Shown here one piece after another: positions 4,304 to 63,345 of a stretch of 64,000 bases of DNA. The stretch is from the IMG/VR virus record IMGVR_UViG_3300028549_003076, positions 1-64,000 of that record. One strand, written 5' to 3'. Within the stretch, counting starts at the first letter, position 1. Each line of letters begins with the position of its first letter. A program made the translations under genes and the position numbers. The notes beneath the pieces were generated by a model. That model saw only the letters and a program-made list of their open reading frames with translations, made no database searches and was not told the DNA's origin. Origin of the DNA: a virus.

Positions 4304-5146
4304 ATGTATCAAGGTGAAGACATAAAAGAAAATATTGCAGCAAGAAAACTTAACATCATCAAAGGTTTTGTTGAAACAGATGATATTCTTGAAAAGGCAG
4401 CTCAATCTAAACAAGTAGGGCAAACAAAAGTTGGTTCAGATGGAGTTACCAGAGTTTGGACTCAACTACCAAATGGTAAGTATGATTGGAGGAGAAAAAA
4501 AGCATCATCTGATGATAAAAAAGATGTTAAAAAAGATGAATCAAAAAAATCTCAAAAGGATGATTCAGACTCACCAAAAAATTCTAAACAAATTGGAGTT
4601 ACAAAATCAGGCAAAAAGATTTATGAAGATGGTTCAGAACATGAACAAGATGAAGATTGGACATCAAAAGACCATGAGGAGGCAGCTGAAGCACATCAAG
4701 TTTGGAGTTTAAACAGAACTCAAACAGTAGGTCAAAAAGTTTCAAATGCAGATTTAAGTAAAACATATTCAAAACATGTTGAAAAACAAAAAACAAAATC
4801 AACTTCAAAAAAAGATGATGTAAAATCTGATAATGATTTCAAACCTCACAAAAGTTTTGAAGGTGCAATGAAAACAAAAAGTAGTGCAAAATTTGTAAGT
4901 GCAGATGGAGAACATTGTCAAATATCAAGAGGTTACATTGGAAATAAGATAAGTATAATGGTTACATTTATGCAACCAAATAAAGATGTTGCATCTAAAC
5001 ATGCAATACGCTCATCTTCAGCAAATAAAATATTAAAATTTTTGAATGATAATAAATTCAAAAACGAGGATGATGTAAAGGAAAAAATTCAAAAATCATC
5101 TGACTCTCAAATACAAAAAGCAAAATCAATCTTAAATTTAGAATAA
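4304..5146 (+). CDS. highly charged Lys/Asp/Ser-rich protein with shared N-terminal leader and VGxTKV..DWRK module (possible head-internal/ejected protein)
   Basis: 280 aa. N-terminal LNIIKGFVETDDILEKA is paralogous to the 8606 ORF. VGQTKVGSDGVTRVWTQLPNGKYDWRRK is paralogous to the 19035 and 20477 ORFs. The C-terminus QKAKSILNLE resembles the 19035 C-terminus. Confidence 0.6.
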   Translation: MYQGEDIKENIAARKLNIIKGFVETDDILEKAAQSKQVGQTKVGSDGVTRVWTQLPNGKYDWRRKKASSDDKKDVKKDESKKSQKDDSDSPKNSKQIGVTKSGKKIYEDGSEHEQDEDWTSKDHEEAAEAHQVWSLNRTQTVGQKVSNADLSKTYSKHVEKQKTKSTSKKDDVKSDNDFKPHKSFEGAMKTKSSAKFVSADGEHCQISRGYIGNKISIMVTFMQPNKDVASKHAIRSSSANKILKFLNDNKFKNEDDVKEKIQKSSDSQIQKAKSILNLE

Positions 5147-7148: not shown

Positions 7149-7847
7149 ATGGGCAGAAAAAATTATGAACATTTATTACCACCTACAAGTGAAGATATAA
7201 ATGATGAAAATCTAAATTTATTTTTTTCATCAATGTTTGAAAGGCAAGAAATTTGGTACAAAAGATTTATTCTAAAACAACCAAGACCATGGACAAAAGA
7301 TAAAATATTTGAAGGAAAGTTTACAAATGTTTATCGTGAATTAGATAGACATAGTCAATGGCAAATTCAAAACATTTTTTTAGATAAAAGAAATGATAAA
7401 TTGAATTTAGTCTGGAAAATAATGTTATTCAGAATTTTCAATAAACCAGAGTTGTTTGAATTTATTAAAGGAATTTCAGGAGAATTTATACCAGATTATA
7501 AGGATTATGGTATTAATGTATTTGGAAGACTTGTTGAAAATTATAGAAATTCAGGTGAAAATCCATTCACTAATGCTTATTTGATAAACAGTCAAGCATG
7601 TCCAGGAGCAACAAGGGATTGGTGTTATATAAATAAAGTTGTTCCAACAATACATAAAGCAATACCAAGATTATTAGTATTATTTAAACAATCAAAAAAT
7701 CCTGAACAAATCATTGAAAAATTATTAGAACTTCCTTCAGTGGCAAATTTTATTGCTCATGAGTTTTATCAAGATTTTACATACATATCTATTTACACTG
7801 ATTTAGATATTTTCAAATTTGACCAAAATGATTTTACTAATGTTTGA
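7149..7847 (+). CDS. aGPT-Pplase-like DNA base hypermodification enzyme, N-terminal part (ends at in-frame TGA)
   Basis: ERQEIWYKRFILKQPRPWTKDKIFEGKFTNVYRELDRHSQW matches my recollection of the alpha-glutamyl/putrescinyl-thymine pyrophosphorylase family signature (PWT.D.I....F.NvYRE.DR.t.W). Confidence 0.6.
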   Translation: MGRKNYEHLLPPTSEDINDENLNLFFSSMFERQEIWYKRFILKQPRPWTKDKIFEGKFTNVYRELDRHSQWQIQNIFLDKRNDKLNLVWKIMLFRIFNKPELFEFIKGISGEFIPDYKDYGINVFGRLVENYRNSGENPFTNAYLINSQACPGATRDWCYINKVVPTIHKAIPRLLVLFKQSKNPEQIIEKLLELPSVANFIAHEFYQDFTYISIYTDLDIFKFDQNDFTNV

Positions 7848-7871: not shown

Positions 7872-8135
7872 ATGATATTTCCAAATTTAGAAACAAATAA
7901 ACAACAAATTAAAGCAATACACTATTTACGTGATATTGCTGAGCAAAAACTATCTGATATTGGTGATTTTAAGTTTGTTAGTTGGTGTAAAAATAATAAT
8001 CAATATAAAGTTACTGATGAATGTAATATCACACTACATCAAATTGAAATGTGGCTTTGTGAATTTCAAAAATATTGGAAGATGAAACATAAAGTAGGTA
8101 AACAAAGAAGTGTGTTTGAACCCAAGACTATTTAA
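7872..8135 (+). CDS. aGPT-Pplase-like enzyme, C-terminal part (same frame as 7149-7847)
   Basis: Same reading frame as the upstream ORF. They are separated only by TGA (7845-7847) plus 8 sense codons. No independent promoter or RBS is evident. Confidence 0.5.
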   Translation: MIFPNLETNKQQIKAIHYLRDIAEQKLSDIGDFKFVSWCKNNNQYKVTDECNITLHQIEMWLCEFQKYWKMKHKVGKQRSVFEPKTI

Positions 8136-15760: not shown

Positions 15761-15984
15761 AAAAAGGAGAACAAGATTTGAAACAAAAGGAAAATAATAA
15801 AATTCTAAAACAGAATGATGCAATTCTGAATACATTTATTTCTGAAAAGCAAAAAAGACATGTGAAGGAACCGCAAGAAAAAATATTCAAAAATTTAAAC
15901 AATAAATTTATTGAAAATTATGGTAAATTAGTTGTAGCAAAAACTACAAAAGAAATAATGAAATTTTCAAAAGATGGAATTTAA
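15757..15984 (+). CDS. hypothetical protein (non-ATG start)
   Basis: Only TTG starts are available (15757 or 15778, the latter 6 nt after aaggag). No motif recognised. Confidence 0.35.
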   Translation: MKKGEQDLKQKENNKILKQNDAILNTFISEKQKRHVKEPQEKIFKNLNNKFIENYGKLVVAKTTKEIMKFSKDGI

Positions 15985-16876
15985 TTTTTATCAAATATCT
16001 AAAATAATTGAGATTTTTTCAAAAAATCAAGCACTATTTATTGGTTCAACAATAGGTTTGGACTACTTAACAGATTATGATAAATTTATACTAAAATTGA
16101 ACGGAATTGATTTAGAAAATATACAACAATTGAATGATATTCAAAGAATGTTTTATTTTGGAATTTATTCAGGAATGTTGGGTGGTAATAATGCTTTCAA
16201 GAAAAAACAAGATGATTTTGAAGAATGGTTAAAAATTGAAATGAATAGACCATTATCATTTCAAAAAAAGAAAGCACTTGATTTCATTAAATTAAGAGCA
16301 TTTAATGATATATCAGGATTAGGCAATAAGATTGTTGGTAAATTGAATAATAAGATATTAACAGCAAATTTAGCCACTCAAAACAGGTTGAGAAATGATA
16401 TAAAGAAAAAAACTATTGAAGCATTTAATGAAAATAAAAATGCTCAACAATTAGCATCTATATTAAGAGAATTAACAGGAGATTGGGCAAGAGATTTTTC
16501 AAGAATTGCTGATTATGTTCTACAAGAAGCATATGCTCATGGAAGAATGGAGCAAATAAAAGAAATGTATGGTGATGATTGTAAAGTTTATAAACAAACA
16601 TTTCCAGGAGTTTGTAAACATTGTGAAAAAAATTATGGTAGTCCTGGTGAGGAACCAATAATATATACTGTTGATGAGTTATTAGCAAATGGTGATAATA
16701 TAGGAAGAAGTGAGCAATTACCAGTTGTTGGCCCAGCACATCCATGGGCACGCTCAATACTACACCCTATTCCAGAAGGATATATTTGGAGTGATGAAAT
16801 GAAAAGATTTGTTCCATCAAGACAAACTCATGGAGTAAAAAGAAATAGCAAAGTTAAGGTTACTATAACGGAATAA
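15974..16876 (+). CDS. MuF / SPP1 gp7-like minor head (head morphogenesis) protein
   Basis: 300 aa. DWARDFSRIADYVLQEAYAHGR, a Cys pair GVCKHCEKNYG, and PVVGPAHPWARSILHPIP where the H.NCRC-type motif of the family sits. Lies in the head-gene neighbourhood. Confidence 0.6.
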   Translation: MEFNFYQISKIIEIFSKNQALFIGSTIGLDYLTDYDKFILKLNGIDLENIQQLNDIQRMFYFGIYSGMLGGNNAFKKKQDDFEEWLKIEMNRPLSFQKKKALDFIKLRAFNDISGLGNKIVGKLNNKILTANLATQNRLRNDIKKKTIEAFNENKNAQQLASILRELTGDWARDFSRIADYVLQEAYAHGRMEQIKEMYGDDCKVYKQTFPGVCKHCEKNYGSPGEEPIIYTVDELLANGDNIGRSEQLPVVGPAHPWARSILHPIPEGYIWSDEMKRFVPSRQTHGVKRNSKVKVTITE

Positions 16877-16886
16877 ATTTTATATA

Positions 16887-17561
16887 ATGGACAAAAAGAA
16901 AAAAGTGTTGTTAATTCAACCACATTCGGATGATATTCTATTTTCAGCAAGTAAATTTTTATTTGAAAGTAGAAATTATAAAAAAGTAAAAATGCTGACT
17001 GTTGAAAATGTTAGTGAAAAAAGATTAGAGGAAGATGTTGAATTGTGTAAACATTTTAATATTGATTTATTATTATTAGATACTAAAATTTCATCTGAAG
17101 ATTTTCACAAAGAGTATTATTCACAATATAAAGAAATGGATGATGTTGATTGTTTAAATTTTTGTAAAAAGAAAATAGGTTCAAAAAATATAAATAAACT
17201 TGCAAAGGAATTAATAAAAACAATCAACAAACATAAAGAAAATGGTTATTTAATTGTTTCTTGTCTTGGAGTTGGACATCCATTTCATTGGTTAGTAAAT
17301 TTTTTAACAGCTGATTATTCAGATTTATTTTACAGAGATTTTCCTCATTCTTTTAAAAGAAGGAATCAAAACTATTTCAATTTTGTAACTGAGAATGAAT
17401 TTGATTTAGATTTTAATCATTTTGAGGATAAAGAACATTCTGAAAAATTTGAATTGATTTCAAAGTTTTATAAGTCACAAAAGTCATTATTATTTTTTGA
17501 AAAAAGATATATTGACAAGAAACTACCAGAACAATTTTTTAAAAAGAAAAAAGATGAGTAA
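16887..17561 (+). CDS. PIG-L/LmbE-family deacetylase
   Basis: VLLIQPHSDDILFSA matches the (A/P)HPDDE motif region. A second His motif, GVGHPFHW, is present. Confidence 0.7.
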   Translation: MDKKKKVLLIQPHSDDILFSASKFLFESRNYKKVKMLTVENVSEKRLEEDVELCKHFNIDLLLLDTKISSEDFHKEYYSQYKEMDDVDCLNFCKKKIGSKNINKLAKELIKTINKHKENGYLIVSCLGVGHPFHWLVNFLTADYSDLFYRDFPHSFKRRNQNYFNFVTENEFDLDFNHFEDKEHSEKFELISKFYKSQKSLLFFEKRYIDKKLPEQFFKKKKDE

Positions 17562-18984
17562 AAAATTAAAAATCAGAATTTGCACATTTGACATTGCTAA
17601 ATATGGAGGGATAATTCAAAATGTTGAAAGTAGAATAAAAGCATTTAAACAAATGGGTCATGATGTTGATATAATAATGTTAACATATCAAAAAACAATA
17701 TCAACAAGTTCATTTGAAAGAAAATTGAAAGACCTTGAATCAAATAAATTTCAAGATGATAAAGATTTGAAAAGTCAAAATGGTGGTTATTCAAAATCAC
17801 CAATTACAGGATATTGGAGAAATTCATACTATGGTTGGCATCTTCCACCAGTTACAAACAAAATACCAGTATTTCATGAAGATGCTTTAAAAATGTGGCA
17901 TGATGCAGTAGATGATTGTGATATTGTTTTTTGGTCATTTACTCCTACTAAAACAAGTGAGGCAAAAGGTTTTGATTTTTGGCCAAAATTTTTTGATTTA
18001 CCAAAAAGTGTAAAACAAGTAATGGCAGTTCATGATGGATATTTTGATGTAAGAAATAGTTGGGTAAGATATTTAGCACCAAAAATAAAATATCTTGATT
18101 GTGTTCATGTTAGTGCTTATAATGCTGTTGAGAATTTTGAAATTCCAAGATATTTGAATTTTGCTTCAAGATTTATTCCTGAAAAATTACCACTAAAAAG
18201 TTTTGAAAAGAAACCTATTGATTTTTTTGCTGCACATGTTTTTAAGTCAATGAAAAAAATTGAAGACATATTATTATCATTACCTTATTTAGATGGTGAA
18301 AACAATACTGTAATTGCTGGTTCAGGCATAGAATTATATTATATGATAATGGATGATGAAACCAAATTGAAACCAAATTATAAAATTTCTAAAAAGAATG
18401 ACCCAGATTGTAAAGAAAAGGAAATTGGAAAATCTATTTGGAAACGTGCAGAAAAAAATGGAATGGAGTTTGTTGGTTTTTTAAGTAATGAGCAAGTTTA
18501 TAAATATTTAAGAAATTCAAAATTTGCAATTGACCCATCATTCAGTAAACATTATGCTCAATACTCAAATACTCATTTGAATGGTTTTATTATTGAAGCA
18601 ATTATAAATGGCTCATATCCTGTATTGCGTGATACAGTAGGTATGGTAAAACATGATAGAGAAATCGATGATATAATTTTTAATGAATTGAGAGCAATCT
18701 ATATTCCTTGGGATGCAACTCCAAAACAATTTGCTGAAAAGTTGAATGAAGCAAAAAACATGTCTGAAAGTAAGTATAAAAAAGATTTGATTCATAACTT
18801 CAAATTAGCACAAAAACTTTTTGACCCAATAAAAAATATGAGTGATGTAATAACACTTTCAAAAGTAAAAAATATTGAGGATGTTTTAGAAGTAGGTTCA
18901 AATTCAGACAAAGTGATAAATGATTCAGAAAAAATAATGAAAGAATTTTTCAATTGTGAGTTGCCTATTAAATGGAGTCATTGA
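17554..18984 (+). CDS. GT-B fold glycosyltransferase (GT4-like)
   Basis: Start taken at the ATG at 17554 (MSKKLKIRICTFDIAKYGGIIQNVESRIKAFKQMGHDVDII, typical of a GT4 N-terminus). C-terminal NGFIIEAIINGSYPVL matches the E..G.P motif region. Overlaps the deacetylase gene by 8 nt. Confidence 0.7.
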   Translation: MSKKLKIRICTFDIAKYGGIIQNVESRIKAFKQMGHDVDIIMLTYQKTISTSSFERKLKDLESNKFQDDKDLKSQNGGYSKSPITGYWRNSYYGWHLPPVTNKIPVFHEDALKMWHDAVDDCDIVFWSFTPTKTSEAKGFDFWPKFFDLPKSVKQVMAVHDGYFDVRNSWVRYLAPKIKYLDCVHVSAYNAVENFEIPRYLNFASRFIPEKLPLKSFEKKPIDFFAAHVFKSMKKIEDILLSLPYLDGENNTVIAGSGIELYYMIMDDETKLKPNYKISKKNDPDCKEKEIGKSIWKRAEKNGMEFVGFLSNEQVYKYLRNSKFAIDPSFSKHYAQYSNTHLNGFIIEAIINGSYPVLRDTVGMVKHDREIDDIIFNELRAIYIPWDATPKQFAEKLNEAKNMSESKYKKDLIHNFKLAQKLFDPIKNMSDVITLSKVKNIEDVLEVGSNSDKVINDSEKIMKEFFNCELPIKWSH

Positions 18985-18989
18985 AAATA

Positions 18990-18999
18990 ACAAGTATTA
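18990..18999 (+). promoter_or_regulatory. ACAAGTAT(T/A)A box
   Basis: acaagtatta, 45 nt before the ATG at 19035. Confidence 0.35.
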
Positions 19000-19034
19000 T
19001 AAAGTAAATTTTACAAAAATAAATTCAAGATATT

Positions 19035-20471
19035 ATGAATAAAATTAGTGAAACATTAAAAGATGTTATTCAAAAAGCAAAACCAAATGTAGGTGATACA
19101 AAAGTTGGTAAAGATGGTATTACAAGAAAATATGTTGAGTACTCACCAGGAAAGTTTGACTGGAGAAAAATAAAAGATGATGATGAGAAAAAATCAGCAT
19201 CTAAAACAACAACATCTGTTGACCCAAGTAAATTTGCAGCAGTAATAAAAAAGACTGAAAGTAGCAAATTGTCTAATATGGCAAAAAATCCTAAAAATGC
19301 TCCAAAAGTAAGACAAGCTGCTTATGATGAGTTAGTTGAACGTGGAGAAGATGTATCAGAAATTGATTTAGATACAGGAAGATATGGTATGATGAAACAA
19401 GCATTTGGAGTTGATCAAGATGGTGATGACTTCAAATTATCAGATGGTGGTGTTAGTTTTGATTCAGAAGATGATGAAGATATTGATTGGGGTGATCCTG
19501 ATTTCATCAAAAAGGAATTTGGAGGTTTGAAAACAAAAAAACAAAGGGTTGAATATGATAAATTTGTAACTCAACAAAAACAAAAAGACCCAAGATATAA
19601 AACACCTATTCAAGAAGTTCATCAATTAAATAAATTATATGCTGAATTTATTGACACTGATGCTCCATTAATGATTGCTTCAGGTGGTGCTGGTGTTGGT
19701 AAAACTTTTAACTTTCATTTAGTTGCTGAGGCATTTGGAAAGAAACCATTTAATCCTGAATATGATACTCCTGGTGATAGTGATTATGATTATTATGAAG
19801 CACCAGAAGTTACTCCTGCTCAACTTATTCCATTATTGAAAGAACATAATGGAAAAATAATTCTTTTTGATGATAGTGATGCTATATTGAAAGACCCAGG
19901 AGCATTAGGTATTTTGAAAAAAGCAACTGCTACATCAGGTAAAAGAATGGTTGGAAGACAAACATCATCAGATGCAACAACAATCCTACCATTTGAGTTT
20001 ACAGGAAAAATTATTTTCTTGACAAATATGAGTCAATCTGCTTTAACAAAAAATGATGATATGAAAGCAATATCATCAAGAGCATTAAAAAAAGATATTT
20101 ATTTTACAAAAGAAGAGCAATTATTTTTCATTGAAAAATTAAAACATAAATTTGAATTTACAGGTGTTCCGAGATTAGAAAACAAAGCTGAAGACATTCA
20201 GGAGCGTGAAGAAGTTTTTCAAATTTTAAGTGATAATTTTGAAAACATAGACCCATTGAAATTTAATTCAAGAAGTATGAAAGAGGCAATTCAGATGAAA
20301 CGTGCTAATGACCGTGCTAATGAAAAAATAAAAAATGACCCTGTTATGGGTAAAATGCTTTTTGGAGACAATGCAGATTGGAAGGAAGAAGTTGTTGATT
20401 TTCTTGTGAAAGGATATACTGCAAAAGAACAAAAAATTGAAAAAGCAAAAGAAATTTTACATTTAAGTTAA
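19035..20471 (+). CDS. AAA+/P-loop ATPase with N-terminal VGxTKV..DWRK module
   Basis: Walker A ASGGAGVGKTF, Walker B KIILFDDSD, sensor-1-like IIFLTN, Arg at AISSRAL. N-terminal VGDTKVGKDGITRKYVEYSPGKFDWRK. Confidence 0.65.
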   Translation: MNKISETLKDVIQKAKPNVGDTKVGKDGITRKYVEYSPGKFDWRKIKDDDEKKSASKTTTSVDPSKFAAVIKKTESSKLSNMAKNPKNAPKVRQAAYDELVERGEDVSEIDLDTGRYGMMKQAFGVDQDGDDFKLSDGGVSFDSEDDEDIDWGDPDFIKKEFGGLKTKKQRVEYDKFVTQQKQKDPRYKTPIQEVHQLNKLYAEFIDTDAPLMIASGGAGVGKTFNFHLVAEAFGKKPFNPEYDTPGDSDYDYYEAPEVTPAQLIPLLKEHNGKIILFDDSDAILKDPGALGILKKATATSGKRMVGRQTSSDATTILPFEFTGKIIFLTNMSQSALTKNDDMKAISSRALKKDIYFTKEEQLFFIEKLKHKFEFTGVPRLENKAEDIQEREEVFQILSDNFENIDPLKFNSRSMKEAIQMKRANDRANEKIKNDPVMGKMLFGDNADWKEEVVDFLVKGYTAKEQKIEKAKEILHLS

Positions 20472-20476
20472 AATTT

Positions 20477-22738
20477 ATGTCAAAAGAAATCTTTTTAAAA
20501 TCACTACAAACTATTGCCTTTGCTAATATGAATAATCAAATTGATGATATTCATTTAGTGAAGGCATCTGATAGTTATAAAAGTAGAATAAATTTCAAAA
20601 GTGATTCAAAATACTTATTAATAAAATCTAAAACATTTAACAACTTCATAAATGGAAATGATAATCCTCAATCTTTAATGAAAGCATTGGTTGTAGGTGA
20701 AACAAAAATTCAAAACGGAGTTTTATATGTAGTAAAACAAATTAATGGTAAAGGTGGTGTTTATTTAGATTGGAGAAAATCAAATAAACAACCTAAAAAA
20801 ATTGTTGATGATGAACAAGGAAACGATTTATTTGATGTAGATGATTTTCCAAAACTTGGAGACATTACAGTAATAAAATCACTTGGTGGTTCAACAGGTG
20901 CTCAACTTGTTGAAGATAAACAAGGAAATAAATTTGTAATGAAAAAGGGTGCTTCAAAAGAACATGTTGAAGAGGAGTATCTTGTAAATTCAATATATAA
21001 ATTGATGGGTGTTAATGTTCCAACAATGAAGTTATACAAAACTCAAAGTGGTTCATTAATATTGTCAAAATTTATGGAGAATACAACTCCATTAAATAAT
21101 GTAATGGATGACCAATATTTGGAGGAAGTTACTGAACATTATGTTTTAGATTGTTTATTGGCAAATTGGGATATTTATAAAAATGATAACATTTTAGTTG
21201 ATGATGACTCAGGTGATATTGTTCGTGTTGATAATGGGGGTGGATTAAGATATTCAGCACAAGGTAGATTGAAAGGTCAAAATTTCGGAAACCAAGTTGA
21301 TGAAATTGAAACCATGTTGATAAATAATCCACATTTAGCATCAGAAGTTACAACAACAAAAATTAACAAACAAATTAAAGAAATATCTAAAAATCAAAAA
21401 AAGATATTAGATTTAATTGAAGATGATGATTTAAAATTAACAATGAAGATGCGTATTGCAGATTTAAAAATGATTTTAAAAAATGCAAATATTGTTAATG
21501 ATGACCCATACAGAGAGTTGGATGAAAAAGAACTTGAAAAAGCAATGAATAAAGCAAATAATGATTTGTTTAGTTCAAATGATTTAGAGGGTTGGACTTT
21601 TTTATCTGAAATATGTAAAATGAGAGGTTTCAATGGTAAACCTACTGTTGTTGATGAAAAGGAATTCAAAAAACAATTAAAAGATAAAAACACTACACAT
21701 ATACAGAGAGGATTATCTCCATATGGAAATAGAACAGCAAAATCTTTAATGAATGATTTTACTGATTCAGAACATTGTTTTTATGGAAAAGCTGGAATTT
21801 ATGGTGCTGGAATTTATGGTGCTGTTAATGCTGATAAAGATTTATCAAAACCAAACCATGTAGCTGTTGATTATGCTAATTATAAGAATGAGCATATTTT
21901 AGACATTATACTACCAGCTGATATGAAAATTGCTGATGGTAAGGAACTTGATGAAATGATGAATGAAGAGTTTTTTGGTGATGAATTTAAAGAAGCCAAG
22001 AAAGATTATGACAAAGCAGTAGATGAGTTAAATTCCAATAAAAAACGTAAAGAAGATATTGAAAAAGAAATTGAACAAGAAGTAAAAGATGAACTTGGAT
22101 GGAATGAAAAAAGTTATGAAATTTTAAGAAAATCAAAACCAGAGGAAGTTTATGCAGATACTGATAAATTTTCTTTTGATAAAGTTGCTAATTATTTCAA
22201 ACCAATACTAAAATCAATTAATGGTAAAGTTGAAAAAGTTGATTCACAAAATTATAAAATAACACTACCAAACTCACAAGATGAATTTTTACTTAATAGT
22301 AGTATTGCTTCATTAAGTTTAAAACAAAAAAATCAAAATCTAACACCATATAATTATCATTATGTTAGATTGAAGGAGTTTTTAATGAAAGAGCATTTTT
22401 CAAAAATTAAAAAAGTAGTTAATGAAAAAATAAAATATGAATCAAGAAATAATCAAAAAATTTTAGATGCAATTTCAGATATTGAAAAATCTGAAAATGT
22501 ATTGAAAGTTATGTCGGACAATATACAAAATCTAAAAACATCAGGCTCAAACGCTTTGAATAATGTTATGGCTCAAATTGCAAAAAGACCAGGAGGGGAA
22601 TTCAGAGGTTACTATGCTGCAATCAAAGGTTATGATGCAATTATTCAGAAAAATGGTTGGGGTGGTGATACTGATTTTTGTATAATACTAAACAGAAGTA
22701 AAGTAATTGTAAAAGAACATAATAATGATAAAAAATAG
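20477..22738 (+). CDS. fusion protein: shared N-terminal module + protein-kinase-like domain + ADP-ribosyltransferase-like C-terminal region (tentative)
   Basis: Kinase-like motifs: GGSTGAQLVEDKQGNKFVMKKG (Gly loop + Lys), LDCLLANWDIYKNDNILV (catalytic loop) and VRVDNGGG (DFG equivalent). C-terminal HIQRG...YGKAGIYGAGIYGAVN...GYDAIIQKNGWGGDTDFCIILNRSKVIV is reminiscent of Alt/polyvalent-type ART domains. Confidence 0.5.
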   Translation: MSKEIFLKSLQTIAFANMNNQIDDIHLVKASDSYKSRINFKSDSKYLLIKSKTFNNFINGNDNPQSLMKALVVGETKIQNGVLYVVKQINGKGGVYLDWRKSNKQPKKIVDDEQGNDLFDVDDFPKLGDITVIKSLGGSTGAQLVEDKQGNKFVMKKGASKEHVEEEYLVNSIYKLMGVNVPTMKLYKTQSGSLILSKFMENTTPLNNVMDDQYLEEVTEHYVLDCLLANWDIYKNDNILVDDDSGDIVRVDNGGGLRYSAQGRLKGQNFGNQVDEIETMLINNPHLASEVTTTKINKQIKEISKNQKKILDLIEDDDLKLTMKMRIADLKMILKNANIVNDDPYRELDEKELEKAMNKANNDLFSSNDLEGWTFLSEICKMRGFNGKPTVVDEKEFKKQLKDKNTTHIQRGLSPYGNRTAKSLMNDFTDSEHCFYGKAGIYGAGIYGAVNADKDLSKPNHVAVDYANYKNEHILDIILPADMKIADGKELDEMMNEEFFGDEFKEAKKDYDKAVDELNSNKKRKEDIEKEIEQEVKDELGWNEKSYEILRKSKPEEVYADTDKFSFDKVANYFKPILKSINGKVEKVDSQNYKITLPNSQDEFLLNSSIASLSLKQKNQNLTPYNYHYVRLKEFLMKEHFSKIKKVVNEKIKYESRNNQKILDAISDIEKSENVLKVMSDNIQNLKTSGSNALNNVMAQIAKRPGGEFRGYYAAIKGYDAIIQKNGWGGDTDFCIILNRSKVIVKEHNNDKK

Positions 22739-54831: not shown

Positions 54832-55914
54832 ATGGCAACAAAGTCAAAAAAATCGGAAAGTGCAAGTTTATCAAAAGAACAAATTGCACAACTTAAACAA
54901 ATTGGAATTACAGGTTGTAAAACTGAAGCTGATTCAAGAGAAAAAATGGTTGAAAAACTTGCTGAGCAAGGTATTGAAGATGAAGGAGAAACTTGGGAGG
55001 AATTACTTGATATTAGTATGACATTATTTGCTGATGAAGTAGATAATGATGAACTTGCTGAAGAAATTGCTGAAGAGGAAACAAAACCTGCTAAAAAATC
55101 TTCAAAGAAACCTGCTCCTGTTGAAGAGGAAGAAGATGGCGATGAAGAAGAAGATGGCGATGAAGAAGAAGATGGCGATGAAGAAGATGGTGACGATGAT
55201 TCAGATGATGATGATGATTCAGATGATGACGATGATGAGGAAGAAGTTGTTGAAACTAAAAAATCTTCAAAGAAATCTTCAAAAGTTGAAGAAACTAAAA
55301 AATCAACATCTAAAAAAGAAGTTGCAAAAGTTGAACCAAAAAAGAAAAAAGAAAAAACTGCATCAGGCAAAAGATTGAATCCGAAGGATAATTCAGATGA
55401 TGCTGCAAAATATGATGTTTTCAAAAATGCAATATCTAAATTAGGAGATTTTGCTTTGAATTATCTTACAAATGGAGGTTTTTCAGTAATCCATAATGGT
55501 GAGAACAGTAAAAAAGTTTTATTATCTTTTGACTCTCCTAAATTAACTGATGATGGAATAATCGGAAGAGTTTATATTCCAACTTTGCGTGATGAAGACA
55601 AACTATCAGAATTGTTTGGTGATGATTTTGAAATCAAAACATCTTGGTCAGGAAATAAATTAGTTACAAATTATCCTTTGTCTAATTTAGTTGAAACTTT
55701 AAAATCAAATGCTGATGAGTTCAAATCAATTCTTGGAGGAATCAAGAAAAAAGATGAGAAGTTAGGAAAAAATCGTGCAAAGATGGAAGAGCAATTAAAA
55801 GAAACCAAAGACAAAAAAGTTGCTGATATAAAATCAAAATCTAAAACAACATCTAAAAAAGAAGTTGAAGAGGAAGTTGAAGTTGTAAAAACAAAATCCA
55901 AAAAGAAAAAATAA
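54832..55914 (+). CDS. highly acidic repeat protein of unknown function
   Basis: 360 aa. Central EEEEDGDEEEDGDEEEDGDEEDGDDDSDDDDDSDDDDDEEE flanked by Lys-rich stretches. Globular-looking C-terminal half. Confidence 0.6.
   Translation: MATKSKKSESASLSKEQIAQLKQIGITGCKTEADSREKMVEKLAEQGIEDEGETWEELLDISMTLFADEVDNDELAEEIAEEETKPAKKSSKKPAPVEEEEDGDEEEDGDEEEDGDEEDGDDDSDDDDDSDDDDDEEEVVETKKSSKKSSKVEETKKSTSKKEVAKVEPKKKKEKTASGKRLNPKDNSDDAAKYDVFKNAISKLGDFALNYLTNGGFSVIHNGENSKKVLLSFDSPKLTDDGIIGRVYIPTLRDEDKLSELFGDDFEIKTSWSGNKLVTNYPLSNLVETLKSNADEFKSILGGIKKKDEKLGKNRAKMEEQLKETKDKKVADIKSKSKTTSKKEVEEEVEVVKTKSKKKK
55126..55246 (+). repeat. coding tandem repeat (18-nt unit gaagaagaagatggcgat x3 plus degenerate copies)
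   Basis: Copies at 55126-55143 (one mismatch), 55144-55161 and 55162-55179, followed by gat-rich degenerate units. Confidence 0.85.
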
Positions 55915-56009: not shown

Positions 56010-57179
56010 ATGAAATATCAAATTGTTAACAATTCAGGTCAAGTTGAAAATTTTTCAAAATTTTATCCATATCTTAATAAATTTTTATTTGAGAATGGAG
56101 ATTTTGTTGAAAGTAGAAATGGTAATACAAAAGAAGTTTTAAATTTCAAAACAGAAGTTTTGAATCCATATAAAAGATGCGTTGGTAATAATGAAAGAAA
56201 TATTAATATTTTCTTTTTACTTGCTGAAGCAATGTGGATTTGGACAGGGAAAAAAGATGTAAAATTTTTAGAAATTTTTAATACTCAAATGAAGGAATAT
56301 TCAGATGATGGTAAAAATTTTCATGCTCCTTATGGTTTTAGAATGAGACATTATGGTGTATCATCATTTGATAACATTAGACCTACAAATGAAGAAAATA
56401 ATCATGCAGTGAGTCAATTAACCACTGGAATAGACCAAATTGAACTATCACTTGAAGAATTAAATAAAAATCCTGAGTCAAGGAGAGTTGTAATTTCAAT
56501 TTGGAATGCTGAATTAGATTTATGTAAAATATCAAAAGATTTACCATGTAATGATTTATTGATGTTGAAAATAAGAAATGGTAAATTACATTCAACAATA
56601 TCAAATAGGAGTAATGATTTACATTGGGGATTACCTACAAATATTTTCCAATTCAGTTTTGTTACAGAAATCATGACAAAAATTCTTGGTATTGAATTAG
56701 GTACTCAAACTCACAATTCACAATCACTACATTTTTATTTAGAAAATCCAATTGCTGATAATATGTATTCAAATATTCAAATTCAGCCAAACTTTACAGA
56801 TTTGTATGATATTTCTGAACCTTTGAAAATTGATATGAACTTTTTTGATTGCTTAACAATTCAACAAAAAATAAAAAAAGTAGATTATTTCATGAATTTA
56901 ATAATAAATTCAATATTGAATGATGAAAAGATTGAAACAATAAAAATAGGTGAATTAAAAAACTTTTCAAGTTATTTGCTTTTTGTTTATCATTTACTTT
57001 GGATTTATAAGGATTATAAGTTTTCTAAAAAAACTGATGTTTTGAGAGCAAAAAATATTCAAGCAATCAAAGAAATTTTTTCAAATGATTTTGGAGGTAC
57101 TGATATTTATACATTAGCACTTAATTTTTTTGCATCAAAGTTAGAAAATAATAATGATAACATAATTGGAAAATTGTAA
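56010..57179 (+). CDS. thymidylate synthase (ThyA) family enzyme, dUMP-type pocket, with ~140-aa C-terminal extension (candidate dUMP hydroxymethylase)
   Basis: NPESRRVVISIWN, catalytic Cys in DLPCNDLLMLK, NRSNDLHWGLPTNIFQF (Asn at the position that is Asp in dCMP hydroxymethylases), SQSLHFYLEN. Confidence 0.7.
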   Translation: MKYQIVNNSGQVENFSKFYPYLNKFLFENGDFVESRNGNTKEVLNFKTEVLNPYKRCVGNNERNINIFFLLAEAMWIWTGKKDVKFLEIFNTQMKEYSDDGKNFHAPYGFRMRHYGVSSFDNIRPTNEENNHAVSQLTTGIDQIELSLEELNKNPESRRVVISIWNAELDLCKISKDLPCNDLLMLKIRNGKLHSTISNRSNDLHWGLPTNIFQFSFVTEIMTKILGIELGTQTHNSQSLHFYLENPIADNMYSNIQIQPNFTDLYDISEPLKIDMNFFDCLTIQQKIKKVDYFMNLIINSILNDEKIETIKIGELKNFSSYLLFVYHLLWIYKDYKFSKKTDVLRAKNIQAIKEIFSNDFGGTDIYTLALNFFASKLENNNDNIIGKL

Positions 57180-58369
57180 TGGGTGATTTGCAAAAATGGA
57201 TTGATAAAAATAATATAATTTGCCAAAATGAAGATGGGTTAATAACTATTGAGAATTTTGGCAAATTCTTATTTATACAAGAAAAAAATGGTAAAATAAT
57301 CAGTGATGATTATTCAATAATTTTAACAGATGATGAGTTTGATTTTATTGAAGAAAATAAAATTGAATTTGTATTATTTAAGTGGGGAACAAGATTTTAT
57401 TATTGTGAAACTTCAAAAAGAAAAAAGAATGAATATAATGAAGAAGTAATAATACCAAAATTTAATAATTTTAGAAATATTGGAAATTATGAATCAAACT
57501 TTAAAGAAATTGATTTTGTAAACCTATCAATACATACAGGATATGAGCTACTTAATGGAAGTGGTGATGCTCAAGATTATGTAAATAAAGCATATTTTTT
57601 TAAACAAAAAAGTTTAGCAATTTCTGAAAAAAATACATTAGCAGGAACTTTATCATTTCAATTATCTTGTGATAAAAAAGGAATAAAATCAATACTTGGA
57701 CAAACAATAACTGTTGCTTATAATTATAATGAAAAAGATGAACATCATGATTTATATGAATTAAAATTATATGTAAAAGATAAAACAGGTTGGCAAAATT
57801 TATTGAGAATATCAAAACAAATAAATGTAGATTTTGCTTCATTCATACCTTTTGATAATTTAAAAAATCATACAAAAGGTTTAATTTGCGTTATTCCTTT
57901 TGATAGTTATTTTAACAAAAATATTGAAAACAAAAAATCAAAAATAGAATTAAAGAAACTTCAAGAACTTTATGATGAATGTTTCTATCAGATTGATTTT
58001 ACAGAATTTAATGATGACTCATTAGATATTGAAAGATTGAATAAAATAAAGTATTATTTTAACAATTATTATAAAAAAATACAACCTGTATATATTGAAG
58101 ATGTTTTTTATGTTGACTCAATAGATAGTGATGTAAAGTCATTATTAAATAAAGTTGATAGGAAAGCAATACCATCATCAAAAAATCAATATTTAAAATC
58201 TATTGATGAAATCATTGAAAAATACTATGATCTATTCAGTGATGAAAATAATAATATATCAAAATTTTTCAAATCAATAAATAATACAAAAAAATATCTG
58301 AACTTTGTAATTTTAGAATTGATACTGGAAATCATAAATTACCAAAATTTGAAGTTGAAGACACTTTGA
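57179..58369 (+). CDS. dnaE: DNA polymerase III alpha (DnaE-type), N-terminal part: novel ~110-aa extension + degenerate PHP domain
   Basis: FVNLSIHTGYELLNG aligns with the DnaE PHP start (FvHLHvHS.YSlLDG) but lacks the HxH histidines. The ORF loses homology after ...NNTKK at the A7 tract. Confidence 0.75.
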   Translation: MGDLQKWIDKNNIICQNEDGLITIENFGKFLFIQEKNGKIISDDYSIILTDDEFDFIEENKIEFVLFKWGTRFYYCETSKRKKNEYNEEVIIPKFNNFRNIGNYESNFKEIDFVNLSIHTGYELLNGSGDAQDYVNKAYFFKQKSLAISEKNTLAGTLSFQLSCDKKGIKSILGQTITVAYNYNEKDEHHDLYELKLYVKDKTGWQNLLRISKQINVDFASFIPFDNLKNHTKGLICVIPFDSYFNKNIENKKSKIELKKLQELYDECFYQIDFTEFNDDSLDIERLNKIKYYFNNYYKKIQPVYIEDVFYVDSIDSDVKSLLNKVDRKAIPSSKNQYLKSIDEIIEKYYDLFSDENNNISKFFKSINNTKKYLNFVILELILEIINYQNLKLKTL

Positions 58370-60747
58370 AACTTTATAGTGAATTAGTTGAGGATGGTTT
58401 CAATAGGAAAGTAAAAAATGAATTCAAAGGTGATAAAGAAAAAATAAAACTTTACAGAGCAAGACTTGATGAAGAGAATGATGTAATTGTAGGTGCAGGA
58501 TTTGTTGATTATTTCTTAATACTTTGGGATATTATCAAATGGGCAAAGGAAAGTGATATATTAGTTGGGCCAGGACGTGGTTCTGTGGGTGGTTGTTTGA
58601 TTGCTTATTTATTAGATATAATAGAGATTGACCCAATCCAATATAATCTTTTATTTGAGCGTTTTTTAAATAAAACAAGGGTGAGTGGTGAAAGAGCAAA
58701 AGCAGCTGATTCACTTCCAGATATTGATATTGACTTTGAAGGAAGTAGAAGACAAGATGTGAAAAGATATATTGAACAAAAATACGGTTTAAATTTTGTT
58801 TGTTCAATTGGGACGTATGCAAGACTGAAAACAAAATCAGCAATAAAAGATTTTGCACGTGTAAAAGGATTAGATTTTCAAAAAGTTAATTTTGCAACAC
58901 GTGAGATACCAGATGATGTAGATTATGATTGGTCAGATTTATTTACAAATGGTTTAAAGAAAAAAGTTTTAAAAGACTTTGTTCAGGAAAATGTTGATAT
59001 TTGTGAAATAATGAAAGCACCACTTGGACAACCACGTTCATCTTCAATACACCCATCAGCAGTAATCATAGTTCCAAAACAAGATGAAGATGGAAATGAA
59101 GTTGAGATTTACGATTGGATGCCAATAAAGAAAATTGATGGACAAATTGTTTCAGAGTGGGAAGGAAAATATATAGACAGAGCAGGTTTTTTGAAGGAAG
59201 ATATTCTTGGTATAGCACAACTTGATAAATTTAGATATATTTTAAATTTAATTCATGAAAATTATAATGAAAAAATAAACTTAAATAAAATTCCTATTTA
59301 TGATGAAAAGGTTTTTGAGTATTTTTCAAATGGTTGGAATGAAGATGTTTTTCAATTTGGAACTTATGGTTTGAAAAGTTATTCAATCAGAGTGAAGCCA
59401 GACAATATTGAAGATTTAATTTCAATGAATGCTTTGTTTCGTCCTGGCCCAATGGATTCAAAAGCACATGATACTTTTGTTGAAATAAGGAGAGGAAAAA
59501 AGAAACCAGAGTTTGATTATGGCTTAAAAGAAGTTACAAAAAACACTATGGGGTTGTATATCTATCAAGAGCAAGTAATGCAAGCAGTACATGTTCTTGG
59601 TAAATTAACATTATCTGAAGCAGATGAATTAAGAACTGCAATCAAAAAATTTGACAAAGTAAAAATGCAATCAGCAATGGAGAAATTTCTTCAAGGTGCT
59701 CAAGATAATGGTTGTTCATTAAAGGAGGCAAATAAAATATGGGACAAATTAAATGCTTTCAGTAGTTATGGTTTTAATAGGTCACACGCTGCTGCATATT
59801 CATTAATGGGTTATTGGAGTCAATGGTTAAAAGTACATTATCCTTTGGAATTTTTTACAGCAAGTTTAAATTTTGCTGATGAAAAAATTGAAATTCCAAA
59901 TAGAATTTCTGAAATAAAGAAAATAAGAAATGGAATAAAAGTTGCTGGTGCTGATATTAATAAGTCAGACATAAGATTTACATCAGACATAAATTTAAAG
60001 AAAATTTATTGGTCACTTACAAAAATAAAATTTGTTGGTGAGGTTGCTGTTAAAGTTATTCTTGAGGAAAGAAAAAATGGAAACTTTTTTTCAATTGAAG
60101 AATTTTACAAAAGGATAAATAAAACAAAAGTTAATAAAAAAACAATGTTGTGTTTAATACTTGCTGGAGCATTTGATGAGGTAGGTAGTGAAAATGTTTC
60201 TATGGAAAATCACAACAAACCAAGAAATAGATACAATTTATTGAAAGCATTTTTTGATTTAAGAAACGAAAAAATTCCTGATGATATTGAGAATGATAAG
60301 TATAAAAACATGAATTGGTTTTGGATAAAAAGACAAAAGGAATTAACAGGTCATGGCGATATTGACTATAAAATTTTAGTTAGAAAAAAATGGCCAAATG
60401 AAAAATTTGCATCAAAAATGTATATTGATGGAGATGATTTTACAAATAAAGTTTTAGAAAAAACTGAATCAAGAAAAGTGATATTAGCAGGAGTAATTTT
60501 TTCTTTAAAAAAGAAAATGTCTAAAAATGGAGAATATGCTTTGATTGAATTACAATGTAATAATTCAATAATAATTGTACATCTTTGGAATGATTATTGG
60601 GACAATAAAAAATTCAAATCAAAGTTATTAGAATTGGAAATAAATAAAAAAATGTTTGCAATATCTGGAGTTATGAAATTTGATAGTTGGAAAAACAAAA
60701 ATGTTTGTTTTGTAGATGATGAAACAAAAATAATAGATTTAATATGA
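58366..60747 (+). CDS. dnaE: DNA polymerase III alpha (DnaE-type), polymerase core and C-terminal domains
   Basis: GFVDYFLILWDIIKWAKESDILVGPGRGSVGGCLIAYLLDIIEIDPIQYNLLFERFLN...LPDIDIDF and FNRSHAAAYS are hallmark DnaE motifs. Homology in this frame already begins at 58294 (ISELCNFRIDTGNHKLPKF), upstream of any start codon. Confidence 0.9.
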   Translation: MKLYSELVEDGFNRKVKNEFKGDKEKIKLYRARLDEENDVIVGAGFVDYFLILWDIIKWAKESDILVGPGRGSVGGCLIAYLLDIIEIDPIQYNLLFERFLNKTRVSGERAKAADSLPDIDIDFEGSRRQDVKRYIEQKYGLNFVCSIGTYARLKTKSAIKDFARVKGLDFQKVNFATREIPDDVDYDWSDLFTNGLKKKVLKDFVQENVDICEIMKAPLGQPRSSSIHPSAVIIVPKQDEDGNEVEIYDWMPIKKIDGQIVSEWEGKYIDRAGFLKEDILGIAQLDKFRYILNLIHENYNEKINLNKIPIYDEKVFEYFSNGWNEDVFQFGTYGLKSYSIRVKPDNIEDLISMNALFRPGPMDSKAHDTFVEIRRGKKKPEFDYGLKEVTKNTMGLYIYQEQVMQAVHVLGKLTLSEADELRTAIKKFDKVKMQSAMEKFLQGAQDNGCSLKEANKIWDKLNAFSSYGFNRSHAAAYSLMGYWSQWLKVHYPLEFFTASLNFADEKIEIPNRISEIKKIRNGIKVAGADINKSDIRFTSDINLKKIYWSLTKIKFVGEVAVKVILEERKNGNFFSIEEFYKRINKTKVNKKTMLCLILAGAFDEVGSENVSMENHNKPRNRYNLLKAFFDLRNEKIPDDIENDKYKNMNWFWIKRQKELTGHGDIDYKILVRKKWPNEKFASKMYIDGDDFTNKVLEKTESRKVILAGVIFSLKKKMSKNGEYALIELQCNNSIIIVHLWNDYWDNKKFKSKLLELEINKKMFAISGVMKFDSWKNKNVCFVDDETKIIDLI

Positions 60748-61340
60748 AAAATTTTTTTAGTGAAATACTTTTTGACCAAGATTTTGACCAATTAAATAAT
60801 ATGGTTAGATGGAATGGTGTTAATAGGATAAAAGATGAAACTGTTGCTCATCATTCATTTATGGTTACTTGGTTTACAAGATTAATAGTTGAAGAAGTAT
60901 TTACAGATAATACTCCAAAACTTATAGCGACAACTTATTCAATATTTCATGATTTTGATGAAATATTTACAGGTGATATTTTACATACATTAAAGTATAA
61001 TGATATAAATGGAGAGCAAATAAAAAATGAATTAGATTTATATTTAAAAAGTAGAATTAACCACAAATTTCCAATCAATACAACCAAAACTAATGATTTA
61101 TTGAATAATACTTTACTAAAAAAAGATATACCAATATACATATCTAAAATAGTGAAAATTTCGGATTGGTTATCAATGCAATTTTATCTTCAAAAGGAAA
61201 TTGATTTAGGTAACAGAAGTGTTATTCCTTTAAGGGAATATTGTATTGAGCAATTAAAAAAATCAATACAAAGTTGTTTAGTTGAATTAGAAAATCAAAA
61301 TGAATATATTGTTAATTTAAAAATCTTTAAAAATGAGTGA
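60744..61340 (+). CDS. HD-domain 5'-deoxynucleotidase (YfbR-like)
   Basis: RWNGVNRIKDETVAHHSFMV ... IFHDFDEIFTGDILHTLKY parallels E. coli YfbR (RW......EnVsEHS..VA...mYHDasEvltGDlPtPvKY). Confidence 0.65.
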   Translation: MKNFFSEILFDQDFDQLNNMVRWNGVNRIKDETVAHHSFMVTWFTRLIVEEVFTDNTPKLIATTYSIFHDFDEIFTGDILHTLKYNDINGEQIKNELDLYLKSRINHKFPINTTKTNDLLNNTLLKKDIPIYISKIVKISDWLSMQFYLQKEIDLGNRSVIPLREYCIEQLKKSIQSCLVELENQNEYIVNLKIFKNE

Positions 61341-62181: not shown

Positions 62182-63345
62182 ATGGCAAAAAAAGTAACGG
62201 ATACAAAATCCAAAAAATCTGATTCAGGAGGCAATTCAAAATTAGATGAATTGCGCAAAAAAATGAAAAAAAATGCACCATCTTTAAAAGCAATAAAAAA
62301 GCAAAATGATGAAGATGATGCAGTTGTAGGTACAAAAGGAAATAGTGAATTTCTTGAATTTGTAGATGGTAAAACTGTAAAATTTAGATTTTTACCACCT
62401 CACAATGATGATATGAAAAATTTCTTTTTATTAAGAAAAAGATATTGGCTACCATTTGAAAAACAAGATGGTTCAATGAGTAGAACAACAGTCCTTGATT
62501 CAATCAGACATGGTGGAACTGAAAAGGATATTTGTGATGAGTTTATCAAACTTGCAAAAAAATTAAACAAGGGTGATGAGAAAAAACTCAAAAAAGTAAC
62601 AGATGCCTATAATAATGGATTAGCAGCAGAACACATGTGGTTGGCTTATGCTATCTCAATTTTAGGTGAGAAACGTGAACTTGGAATTTTACCTTTCAAA
62701 AAAACTGTTCGTGATGAAATTAACAAAATAAATTTTGTTGAAGAAGATGATGAACCAGTTGAAGCAGTAGATACTTTTACAGGTGAGGGTTATCCTTTAT
62801 TGGTTAAATATAACTCAAAACCAAACAAGAAAAAAGGTGAAGAGTATTACACTTGCAATCTTGGTAAAAATGTTGTTGAATTAACAGATGATGAAATTTT
62901 AAAATGGGGTGATGCCAAACCACTTGATGAAATTTATCTTAACTGCTATACAATGTCAGATTTTGAAAGAGCACTTGAAGGATTGAGAATATTCGATGAA
63001 GAAAATGAACTTGGTGTTTTTGATGATGATAGATGGGAGGAAATTGTAGAGGAAGTGAAAGCTCAATATGAAGATAGTGAAGAAGATGATGATGAACCTA
63101 AAAAATCTTCAAAAAAGAAACCATCAAAACCTGCTGCAAAGAAAAAAGTTGAAGAGGAAGACGATGATGACGATGATGACGATGATGACGATGATGACGA
63201 TGATGACGATGATGAATCAGAAGATGACGATGATGACGATGATGAATCAGAAGATGACGATGATGACGATGATGACGATGATGACGATGATGATGCTTTG
63301 AAACGTATCAAAGATAAGTTAAAAAATTCAAAATCAAAAAAGTAA
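62182..63345 (+). CDS. gp32-like single-stranded DNA-binding protein with poly-Asp tail
   Basis: GKTVKFRFLPPHNDD parallels T4 gp32 GQAVIRFLPSKNDE. Basic N-terminus. Extreme acidic C-terminal tract followed by a short basic end. Confidence 0.55.
   Translation: MAKKVTDTKSKKSDSGGNSKLDELRKKMKKNAPSLKAIKKQNDEDDAVVGTKGNSEFLEFVDGKTVKFRFLPPHNDDMKNFFLLRKRYWLPFEKQDGSMSRTTVLDSIRHGGTEKDICDEFIKLAKKLNKGDEKKLKKVTDAYNNGLAAEHMWLAYAISILGEKRELGILPFKKTVRDEINKINFVEEDDEPVEAVDTFTGEGYPLLVKYNSKPNKKKGEEYYTCNLGKNVVELTDDEILKWGDAKPLDEIYLNCYTMSDFERALEGLRIFDEENELGVFDDDRWEEIVEEVKAQYEDSEEDDDEPKKSSKKKPSKPAAKKKVEEEDDDDDDDDDDDDDDDDDDESEDDDDDDDESEDDDDDDDDDDDDDDALKRIKDKLKNSKSKK
63160..63294 (+). repeat. coding microsatellite-like repeat ((gacgatgat)n with two gatgaatcagaagat interruptions)
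   Basis: Directly visible 9-nt periodicity encoding the poly-Asp tail of the SSB-like protein. Confidence 0.85.

Follow-up and report, generated by a model that had tools for sequence, protein, structure and literature searches.

Whether a thymidylate synthase-like enzyme of an uncultured phage makes thymidylate (dTMP) or a modified nucleotide is the question raised by a gene in the IMG/VR virus record IMGVR_UViG_3300028549_003076. Positions 1 to 64,000 of this record were analysed and are referred to as the window (26.8% GC; 68 of 68 open reading frames (ORFs) on the + strand). The gene, at 56010-57179 on the + strand, starts with ATG, stops with TAA and encodes a protein of 389 aa. In the original prediction, made from the sequence without database searches, it had been read as a candidate deoxyuridylate (dUMP) hydroxymethylase (HMase). 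The tree, the active-site alignment, the structure prediction and the pathway genes were concordant with this reading, and the gene very probably encodes a deoxyuridylate HMase making 5-hydroxymethyl-dUMP, as judged from the sequence and a structural model. By analogy with characterised systems, the phage DNA probably carries 5-hydroxymethyluracil (5-hmU) or a derivative of it instead of thymine.

The protein matched PF00303 (Thymidylat_synt; E=3.8e-26, aa 63-246, profile positions 48-214 of 266) and PHROG 5131 (E=1e-70, aa 12-359), both far above chance judging by the E-values, and its family is annotated as 'thymidylate synthase' by JGI and PHROGs. When scored against the NCBIfam ThyA equivalogs (TIGR03284, NF002495-9, TIGR03283), it fell below all cut-offs; the top score was 75.6 bits where 327 was required, and with TIGR03284 the score was 65.5 (cut-off 108.35). 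The same score profile, likewise below the ThyA cut-offs, was obtained for the biochemically characterised SPO1 gp29. The closest phage matches were the gp29-type enzymes of SPO1, SP8 and SP-10 (37-40% identity, E~1e-38), and canonical thymidylate synthases (TS) in the PDB matched at E~1e-17. Over the shared core columns, identity to any validated HMase was 33-36%, and core identity to TS (E. coli ThyA, T4 td) was 21-25%. By these comparisons, the protein is a member of the ThyA superfamily, yet is predicted to be no thymidylate synthase.

For the active site, the protein was aligned with MAFFT to five TS (E. coli ThyA, T4 td and the phage TS of BF10P2, BM15 and JNwz02), to the dCMP hydroxymethylase (dCH) T4 gp42 and to seven HMases, namely SPO1 gp29, SP-10 gp188, M6 gp58, Sonora gp44, RSL1 ORF230, P26218 gp16 and bering gp120 (ViI-like). 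The HMase set comprised ThyA homologues of phages that build their DNA from 5-hydroxymethyldeoxyuridine (5-hmdU) or carry hypermodification clusters. Positions in E. coli ThyA are given below with the prefix EcTS. The catalytic Cys and the RS.D loop described in the original prediction were both located in the ORF, as DLPCND (aa 177-182) and within NRSNDLHWGLPTNIFQF (aa 199-215). The core residues R36, E73, Y108, R158/R159, D177, C180, N181, N199-R200-S201-N202-D203, N211, H241 and Y243 were invariant in a 52-member family alignment (relatives at 47-67% identity); the codons of D177, C180, N199-D203 and N211 lie at 56538-56540, 56547-56549, 56604-56618 and 56640-56642, respectively. With E. 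coli ThyA and T4 td the protein has in common its fold and the residues for nucleotide binding and catalysis, those kept being EcTS R21, E58, Y94, R126/127, C146, R166, S167, D169, N177, H207 and Y209. Unlike these two enzymes, the protein lacks L143, W80, W83, H147, Q165 and the C-terminal closing segment. The TS motif 'IWDEW', which holds Trp80 and Trp83, was replaced in the family by 'M-x-x-[YF]-SDDG', as in the HMases; W80 and D81 fell in a gap and position 83 was Tyr. Furthermore, 'PCH' had become 'PCN' (H147N), 'QRSxD' had become 'NRSND' (Q165N) and Leu143 was replaced by Asp. The W80/D81 deletion, H147N, Q165N and the N177/D143/D169 pattern were also found in the SPO1, SP-10, M6, Sonora, RSL1 and P26218 homologues.

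The last three positions form a published code. At EcTS 177, Asn denotes dUMP and Asp dCMP as the substrate; at EcTS 143, Leu denotes a methyl product and Asp or Glu a hydroxymethyl product; and Asn at EcTS 169 denotes a 5-hydroxy-dCMP synthase (PMC13326640, a 2026 study). The corresponding residues of the 389-aa protein are N211, D177 and D203 (N/D/D), all three invariant in the 52-member alignment, and by the published code this pattern would indicate a dUMP substrate, a hydroxymethyl product and ordinary one-carbon transfer. The loop Asn had been described at the outset as that of dUMP-binding ThyA, with Asp in its place in dCMP hydroxymethylases, and this holds: N211 aligned with EcTS N177, and T4 gp42 has Asp there (Asp179). 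Also unlike the protein studied here, T4 gp42 has Ser94, is only 246 aa long and is without the helical domain described below. The D169N and Asp177 pair of the 5-hydroxy-dCMP synthases (RB69 gp48 type) was absent, the two positions being occupied by D203 and N211. At the positions where the CMP hydroxymethylase MilA has its ribose determinants Ala176 and Lys133, the protein has Ser201 and Arg158, a pair of the deoxy type.

In TS, Leu143, Trp80 and Trp83 exclude solvent and so enforce hydride transfer (PMC6400193, PMC13326640). In the ternary complex of T4 dCH, Asp145 (the equivalent of EcTS L143, where TS has Leu) activates a water molecule for attack on the exocyclic methylene, and the D145N mutant is inactive (PMC6400193). 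A water-activating acidic residue upstream of the Cys is the signature defined in the same study (PMC6400193); in the 389-aa protein an acidic residue lies three positions before the catalytic Cys (D177-L-P-C180) and is invariant in the family. By all available diagnostics, the enzyme is thus classed as a predicted dUMP HMase. An active-site alignment, a phylogeny and a structure prediction had been proposed as checks of the original prediction, and the alignment came out in its favour, with Asn at EcTS 177, a water-activating Asp at EcTS 143 and the solvent-excluding residues of TS lost (PMC6400193, PMC13326640).

The conserved residues suggest a reaction in which Cys180 would attack C6 of dUMP and the methylene of 5,10-methylene-tetrahydrofolate (THF) would pass to C5, giving an exocyclic methylene intermediate. 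Because the Trp80/Trp83 pair and Leu143 are absent, the active site would not be sealed, unlike that of TS. Following the T4 dCH mechanism and the residue code, Asp177 would activate a water that adds to the methylene, yielding 5-hydroxymethyl-dUMP and THF, as against dTMP and dihydrofolate. Asn211 would select uracil, and Ser201 with Arg158 would fit a 2'-deoxy substrate.

A neighbour-joining tree was built from 232 shared columns with 500 bootstraps and a 13-member sample of the query family. The query family grouped with the known HMases (SPO1, SP-10, M6, Sonora, RSL1, P26218 and bering), with TS and dCH outside the group, in 99.8% of bootstraps; the monophyly of the query family was recovered in 99.4% and that of TS in 100%. 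Grouping of the query family with TS was seen in 0.2%, and with dCH alone in 0%. In this tree, the protein falls with the SPO1 gp29-type enzymes, apart from TS and T4 gp42, in agreement with the original prediction.

In the protein collection, 617 relatives of the protein were found at E<=1e-5, of which the best 120 were 375-418 aa long and came from contigs of up to 127 kb. At least 118 IMG/VR contigs encode a relative; these loci were found by searching with the family alignment, a single-protein query having given none. The 389-aa ORF was intact and identical on seven contigs from different samples. A near-identity DNA search against isolated phages gave no match for the window. The major capsid protein had its nearest matches in Bacteroides phages DAC16-23 and SJC03 (46%) and Chryseobacterium phage MA9V-3 (41%), with the SPO1-like Herelleviridae capsids next (36-38%).

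The original prediction had also noted a ~140-aa C-terminal extension. The length was borne out, as 143 residues (aa 247-389) follow the last core motif; they are not appended, however, and instead substitute for the ~50-residue C-terminal segment of TS, so that the net excess over canonical ThyA is ~75-125 aa. The alignment to the Pfam profile ends at its position 214 of 266, and in place of the folate-closing C-terminal segment of TS there is a helical domain. AlphaFold2 (AF2), run with the family alignment, gave a model of mean pLDDT 93.1 and pTM 0.93, in which helices span residues 247-258, 284-303, 310-337, 343-361 and 365-375 with pLDDT mostly 91-98. In a Foldseek search of the PDB, MilA was the top match, with E~6e-19 and a TM of 0.79-0.85 (normalised to MilA) over ~370 aligned columns; canonical TS aligned over 250-300 columns only, with a TMq of ~0.5. 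The top viral structural match was a 359-aa homologue of Maribacter phage Colly_1, to which all 389 columns aligned. In MilA, five additional helices form a C-terminal domain remote from the active site, and truncated versions are reported to be insoluble (PMC5175136). The structure prediction, showing a MilA-like helical domain, was the third check to agree with the original reading. From the model, the extension would be a structural module common to pyrimidine hydroxymethylases and no second catalytic domain. Most family members end in [ILM]GK[LYF], and MAFFT placed this tail under 'VGKYA' of T4 dCH and the C-terminal tails of TS.

MilA, from mildiomycin biosynthesis (PDB 5jnh, 5b6d), resembles the 389-aa protein in its extra multi-helix C-terminal domain and in the Asp at the L143-equivalent position. 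It differs in having the cytosine-type Asp177 with Ala176 and Lys133, in place of Asn211, Ser201 and Arg158, in its low identity (~19%) and in serving a bacterial antibiotic pathway as opposed to phage DNA modification. The likeness to SPO1 gp29, SP8 and SP-10 gp188 extends to '[YF]SDDG...APYG' in place of 'IWDEW', to 'D-x-P-C-N', 'NRSND' and Asn177, to the 37-40% core identity and the failure against the ThyA equivalogs, and to a long helical C-terminal region and a similar length. With 389 aa here, 383 in SPO1 gp29, 382 in SP-10 gp188 and 351 in M6 gp58, the oversize is a clade trait, and the similar oversize of the SPO1 enzyme stated in the original prediction is confirmed. Unlike the SPO1 group, the phage belongs to another lineage with hosts of another phylum, its enzyme family has the conserved GK-type tail and a C-terminal region that cannot be significantly aligned, and its replicase is of the Pol III alpha type, where SPO1 has a family-A polymerase. 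The features discussed here and below are collected in the table.

Table. Coordinates of the predicted HMase gene, its parts and associated genes in the window
Feature	Position	Strand	Evidence
Predicted dUMP hydroxymethylase gene (5-hmdUMP synthase; ThyA superfamily, 389 aa)	56010..57179	+	ORF translation, PF00303, PHROG 5131, neighbour-joining tree, ThyA equivalog failure
Catalytic core, aa 1-246	56010..56747	+	Alignment, E. coli-numbered site table, codon coordinates
C-terminal helical domain, aa 247-375, in place of TS C-terminal segment	56748..57134	+	AF2, Foldseek
C-terminal tail, aa 376-389, ends IGKL	57135..57176	+	Alignment
Pol III alpha-type replicative polymerase (PHP + DnaE core)	57179..60747	+	Pfam PHP, DNA_pol3_alpha, finger, HHH_6
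YfbR-like HD-domain 5'-deoxynucleotidase	60744..61340	+	PF12917 E=2e-16
Stand-alone PF18723 HMUDK_hel protein (former 'aGPT-Pplase clade 1'), 328 aa	7149..8135	+	PF18723

The neighbourhood was examined in the window, in related loci and in a near-identical JGI metagenome contig, Ga0371475_1017401 (86,491 bp, 99.97% identity), in which the window begins ~14.1 kb from the contig start. Neighbourhood counts are among the 80 related loci listed. The Pol III alpha gene, directly downstream in the window, followed the ThyA-like gene in 77 of the 80 loci, and the HD gene was present in 68. The HD protein scored 39 bits against the NCBIfam 5'-deoxynucleotidase model, under its cut-off of 122, and shares the metal-ligand motif H...HD...D with M6 gp59 and P26218 gp17, which are YfbR-like HD proteins encoded directly after their respective ThyA homologues. 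The dNMP nucleotidase that had been proposed at this locus was thus recovered by Pfam as a YfbR-like 5'-deoxynucleotidase, and it is a candidate enzyme for the depletion of dTMP or dTTP. Upstream of the window, the contig carries genes for a dCMP deaminase and for a dUTPase that scored 188.8 bits (cut-off 103). No dihydrofolate reductase (DHFR) was detected in the contig or the related loci, and no NTP pyrophosphatase was found, by phmmer, for which single-sequence sensitivity is limited. The classical pre-replicative 5-hmdU pathway has been summarised (PMC8989533), and the gene context fits it except for the dNMP kinase and the dTTPase; M6, Sonora, P26218 and bering have the same gene set. 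By this analogy, the dCMP deaminase and dUTPase would supply dUMP, the HD nucleotidase would plausibly remove thymidine nucleotides, and hmdUMP would be phosphorylated by some kinase before the Pol III alpha-type polymerase inserted 5-hmdU for T.

Several further observations were made in this neighbourhood. Just upstream of the ThyA-like gene, 54832-55914 encodes a 360-aa D/E-rich protein with long acidic low-complexity tracts, and 62182-63345 encodes a single-stranded DNA-binding (SSB)-like protein (phrog_1192) with a poly-Asp C-terminal region. At 58288-58295 the window has an A7 run where sister contigs have A8, and this 1-nt deletion at ~58295 breaks the polymerase gene in two, with a PHP ORF at 57179-58369 and a core ORF at 58366-60747. 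The gene is intact (1,189 aa) in three other contigs, and the split most likely reflects a homopolymer error or strain variation rather than programmed frameshifting. A 208-aa protein encoded at 3973-4599 of contig L003, ~5 kb upstream of the window start, overlaps the end of the dUTPase gene; it gave a weak Pfam match to 2OG-FeII_Oxy_3 against a match to phrog_274 ('DNA endonuclease V') at E=2e-34. If it is a dioxygenase, its position beside nucleotide-metabolism genes could make it relevant to base modification. In an intergenic gap upstream of the window (L003 4736-5243), ARAGORN predicted an odd tRNA whose anticodon has two bases and, overlapping it, a permuted tmRNA; both are probably false positives. 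No tRNAs were found in the window.

The original prediction had linked the enzyme to an aGPT-Pplase-like gene at 7149 and had seen in 5-hydroxymethyl-dUMP synthesis the entry point to a modified thymidine. The gene does encode a member of PF18723, the family of M6 gp55 and Sonora gp42, although not a catalytic clade-2 transferase, and it is interrupted by a stop in the window. The equivalence of clade 1 with PF18723 was set by scanning M6 gp55 and Sonora gp42 against Pfam; in the same scan, the M6 gp51 transferase matched PF18724 and the kinases PF18748. Joined across the stop, the protein matched positions 4-277 of the 281 in the PF18723 profile (E=2.3e-48). The stop is an in-frame TGA (7845-7847), which leaves two ORFs of 232 and 87 aa. 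At this site the near-identical JGI contig reads GGA, and the corresponding Gly233 is invariant in 68 of 68 homologues as well as in M6 gp55 and Sonora gp42. The TGA is a null allele or a sequence error. Recoding of TGA as Gly (code 25) was considered and ruled out, in that TGA ends 16 of the 68 ORFs, no other gene is so fragmented, no tRNA is present and the sister contig has GGA. At least 21 of the 26 IMG/VR contigs of >=80 kb with the ThyA-like gene were also in the PF18723 list, among 80 loci listed for each; as all of them come from one lineage, these co-occurrences do not count as independent.

M6 gp55 is dispensable for the in vitro reaction (PMC8989533). The clade-1 family has an invariant E300...L303-C304-E305 motif (8046-8063 in the window) that is like the E-x-x-L-C of the clade-2 amino-acid:DNA transferases (AADTs), in which the Cys and a neighbouring Glu are essential. 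On this resemblance, clade-1 proteins may be enzymes rather than inert helical domains. Pseudomonas phage M6, with its 5-NedU hypermodification system, offers counterparts to the ThyA-like protein (gp58, with the same active-site code), the HD protein (gp59), the PF18723 protein (gp55) and the dCMP deaminase (gp65). Unlike in M6, whose genes are clustered, the ThyA-like and PF18723 genes are 49 kb apart here, and counterparts of its PF18748 kinase gp54, PF18724 transferase gp51, pyridoxal phosphate (PLP) decarboxylase and radical S-adenosylmethionine (radical-SAM) isomerase were not detectable.

Several points weigh against the dUMP HMase reading and the pathway built on it. No Pfam match to the 5-hmdU DNA kinase PF18748 was found in the scanned ORFs or contig annotations, and the M6, Sonora and bering kinases gave no phmmer match in 82 kb of contig and 160 related loci (2.65 Mb), searches that a remote analogue could have escaped. 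Likewise, the AADT family PF18724 had no Pfam match, and M6 gp51 and Sonora gp39 found none by phmmer in the same 82 kb and 160 loci. The contig searches covered 82 kb of 86.5 kb, the first ~4.5 kb being outside. No phage dNMP kinase or dTTPase was detected, leaving these pathway steps unfilled. The tree is distance-based and has a small reference set. In the active site, the signature Ser of T4 gp42-type enzymes, two residues before the Tyr, is replaced by Ala106 (A-P-Y108); the validated SPO1 gp29 also has Ala at this position. Finally, the extension showed no significant sequence similarity to those of SPO1, SP-10, M6, RSL1, Sonora, P26218 and bering (hmmsearch E>=0.01 with the seven sequences; hhalign probability 0.1%), and because of this the case for a domain shared with the SPO1/M6-type enzymes is a structural one.

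One alternative is that the protein is a divergent, elongated thymidylate synthase making dTMP for an AT-rich phage genome. It has in its favour the PF00303 match, the 'thymidylate synthase' labels of JGI and PHROGs, the conserved Cys, Arg, Tyr, His and Asn177, and the large need for T of a ~27% GC genome. The same label, however, is carried by SPO1 gp29 and M6 gp58, which come from phages with DNA built from 5-hmdU (PMC8989533). Set against this alternative are also scores far under all ThyA equivalog cut-offs, Asp in place of Leu143, the missing Trp80, Trp83, His147 and C-terminal closing segment, the grouping with TS in 0.2% of bootstraps and the failure to find DHFR, and a dTMP-making enzyme is therefore considered very improbable. 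Slightly less improbable, though still a poor prospect, is an enzyme with another substrate or another chemistry, such as a hydroxymethylase of dCMP or CMP, a methylase of dCMP, a 5-hydroxypyrimidine synthase or an enzyme that modifies dUMP in an undescribed way. Unexpected chemistry has recently emerged in this superfamily, for example the 5-hydroxy-dCMP synthases (PMC13326640), among solved structures the best match is MilA, a CMP hydroxymethylase, and identity to any validated HMase is just 33-36% over the shared core columns. Yet Asn and not Asp at EcTS 177 disfavours cytosine (PMC8670742), EcTS 169 is Asp and not the Asn diagnostic of 5-hydroxy synthases, and the Ser201/Arg158 pair is of the deoxy type, as opposed to Ala176/Lys133 of MilA, with these residues invariant in the family.

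That the gene is a decaying or non-functional remnant might be suspected from the disruption of two other genes in the window, the TGA in the HMUDK_hel gene and the frameshift in Pol III alpha. These disruptions are absent from sister contigs, the ORF itself is intact and identical on the seven contigs, none of the catalytic residues varies among the 52 relatives (47-67% identity) and the AF2 model is very confident, which leaves a remnant with almost no likelihood. The dUMP HMase reading remains much the strongest. The pathway context (dCMP deaminase, dUTPase, HD nucleotidase and no DHFR detected) agrees with the original prediction, whereas an entry point to a modified thymidine, taken to mean hypermodification, reaches further than the data. 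Because only the clade-1 protein is present and PF18748 and PF18724 were not detected, the final base could simply be 5-hmU, as in SPO1. That the orphan clade-1 HMUDK_hel protein acts on 5-hmU DNA alone or with an unrecognised partner, giving a thymidine modification or a 5-hmU-specific DNA transaction by an undescribed route, is a speculative idea and rather unlikely.

Searches for other modification genes extended to PLP enzymes, radical-SAM enzymes and Nmad5 homologues, none of which were found by phmmer in the 82 kb and the 160 related loci. A gene cluster at 15974-22738, between the lysis genes and the head protease, was considered as a hidden DNA-modification module and found no support in PHROGs, NCBIfam and PDB sequence searches. 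It encodes a 300-aa protein whose C-terminal sequence looks Mu-F/SPP1 gp7-like, a 224-aa protein that weakly matched PIG-L, a 476-aa protein with a weak GT1 match, a 753-aa protein with a weak PI3/PI4-kinase match and the sequence GIYGAGIYGA, and a P-loop protein; these look more like head-associated or ejected proteins. The products of 4304-5146 and 19035-20471 are otherwise unrelated proteins with a common N-terminal motif, G-x-TKVG-x-DG-x-TR...GK[FY]DW, which may be a targeting or packaging signal of virion-internal proteins; the second also has the Walker A motif GGAGVGKT. In RefSeq, the validated or predicted 5-hmdU DNA kinases M6 gp54 (L012 21686-22249) and bering gp119 (L018 2045-2707) are labelled 'terminase small subunit', a mislabel that apparently also occurs in phrog_800, which weakly matches the PF18723 protein of the window.

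The enzyme class, its unusual size and the pathway logic were all known before and are met here in an uncultured phage lineage; since the class and the logic are well established, the finding would not surprise a specialist. Apparently lacking both the kinase and the transferase, the lineage offers a clean natural setting for the study of the clade-1 aGPT-Pplase/HMUDK_hel protein. Members of the lineage are annotated everywhere with a plain 'thymidylate synthase', and the three-residue code (EcTS 177, 143 and 169) can be used to correct such labels in large numbers. If the reading is true, a common group of ~85-125 kb AT-rich phages swaps thymine for 5-hydroxymethyluracil, which would affect restriction, CRISPR targeting, library preparation and nanopore base-calling of the DNA of this lineage.

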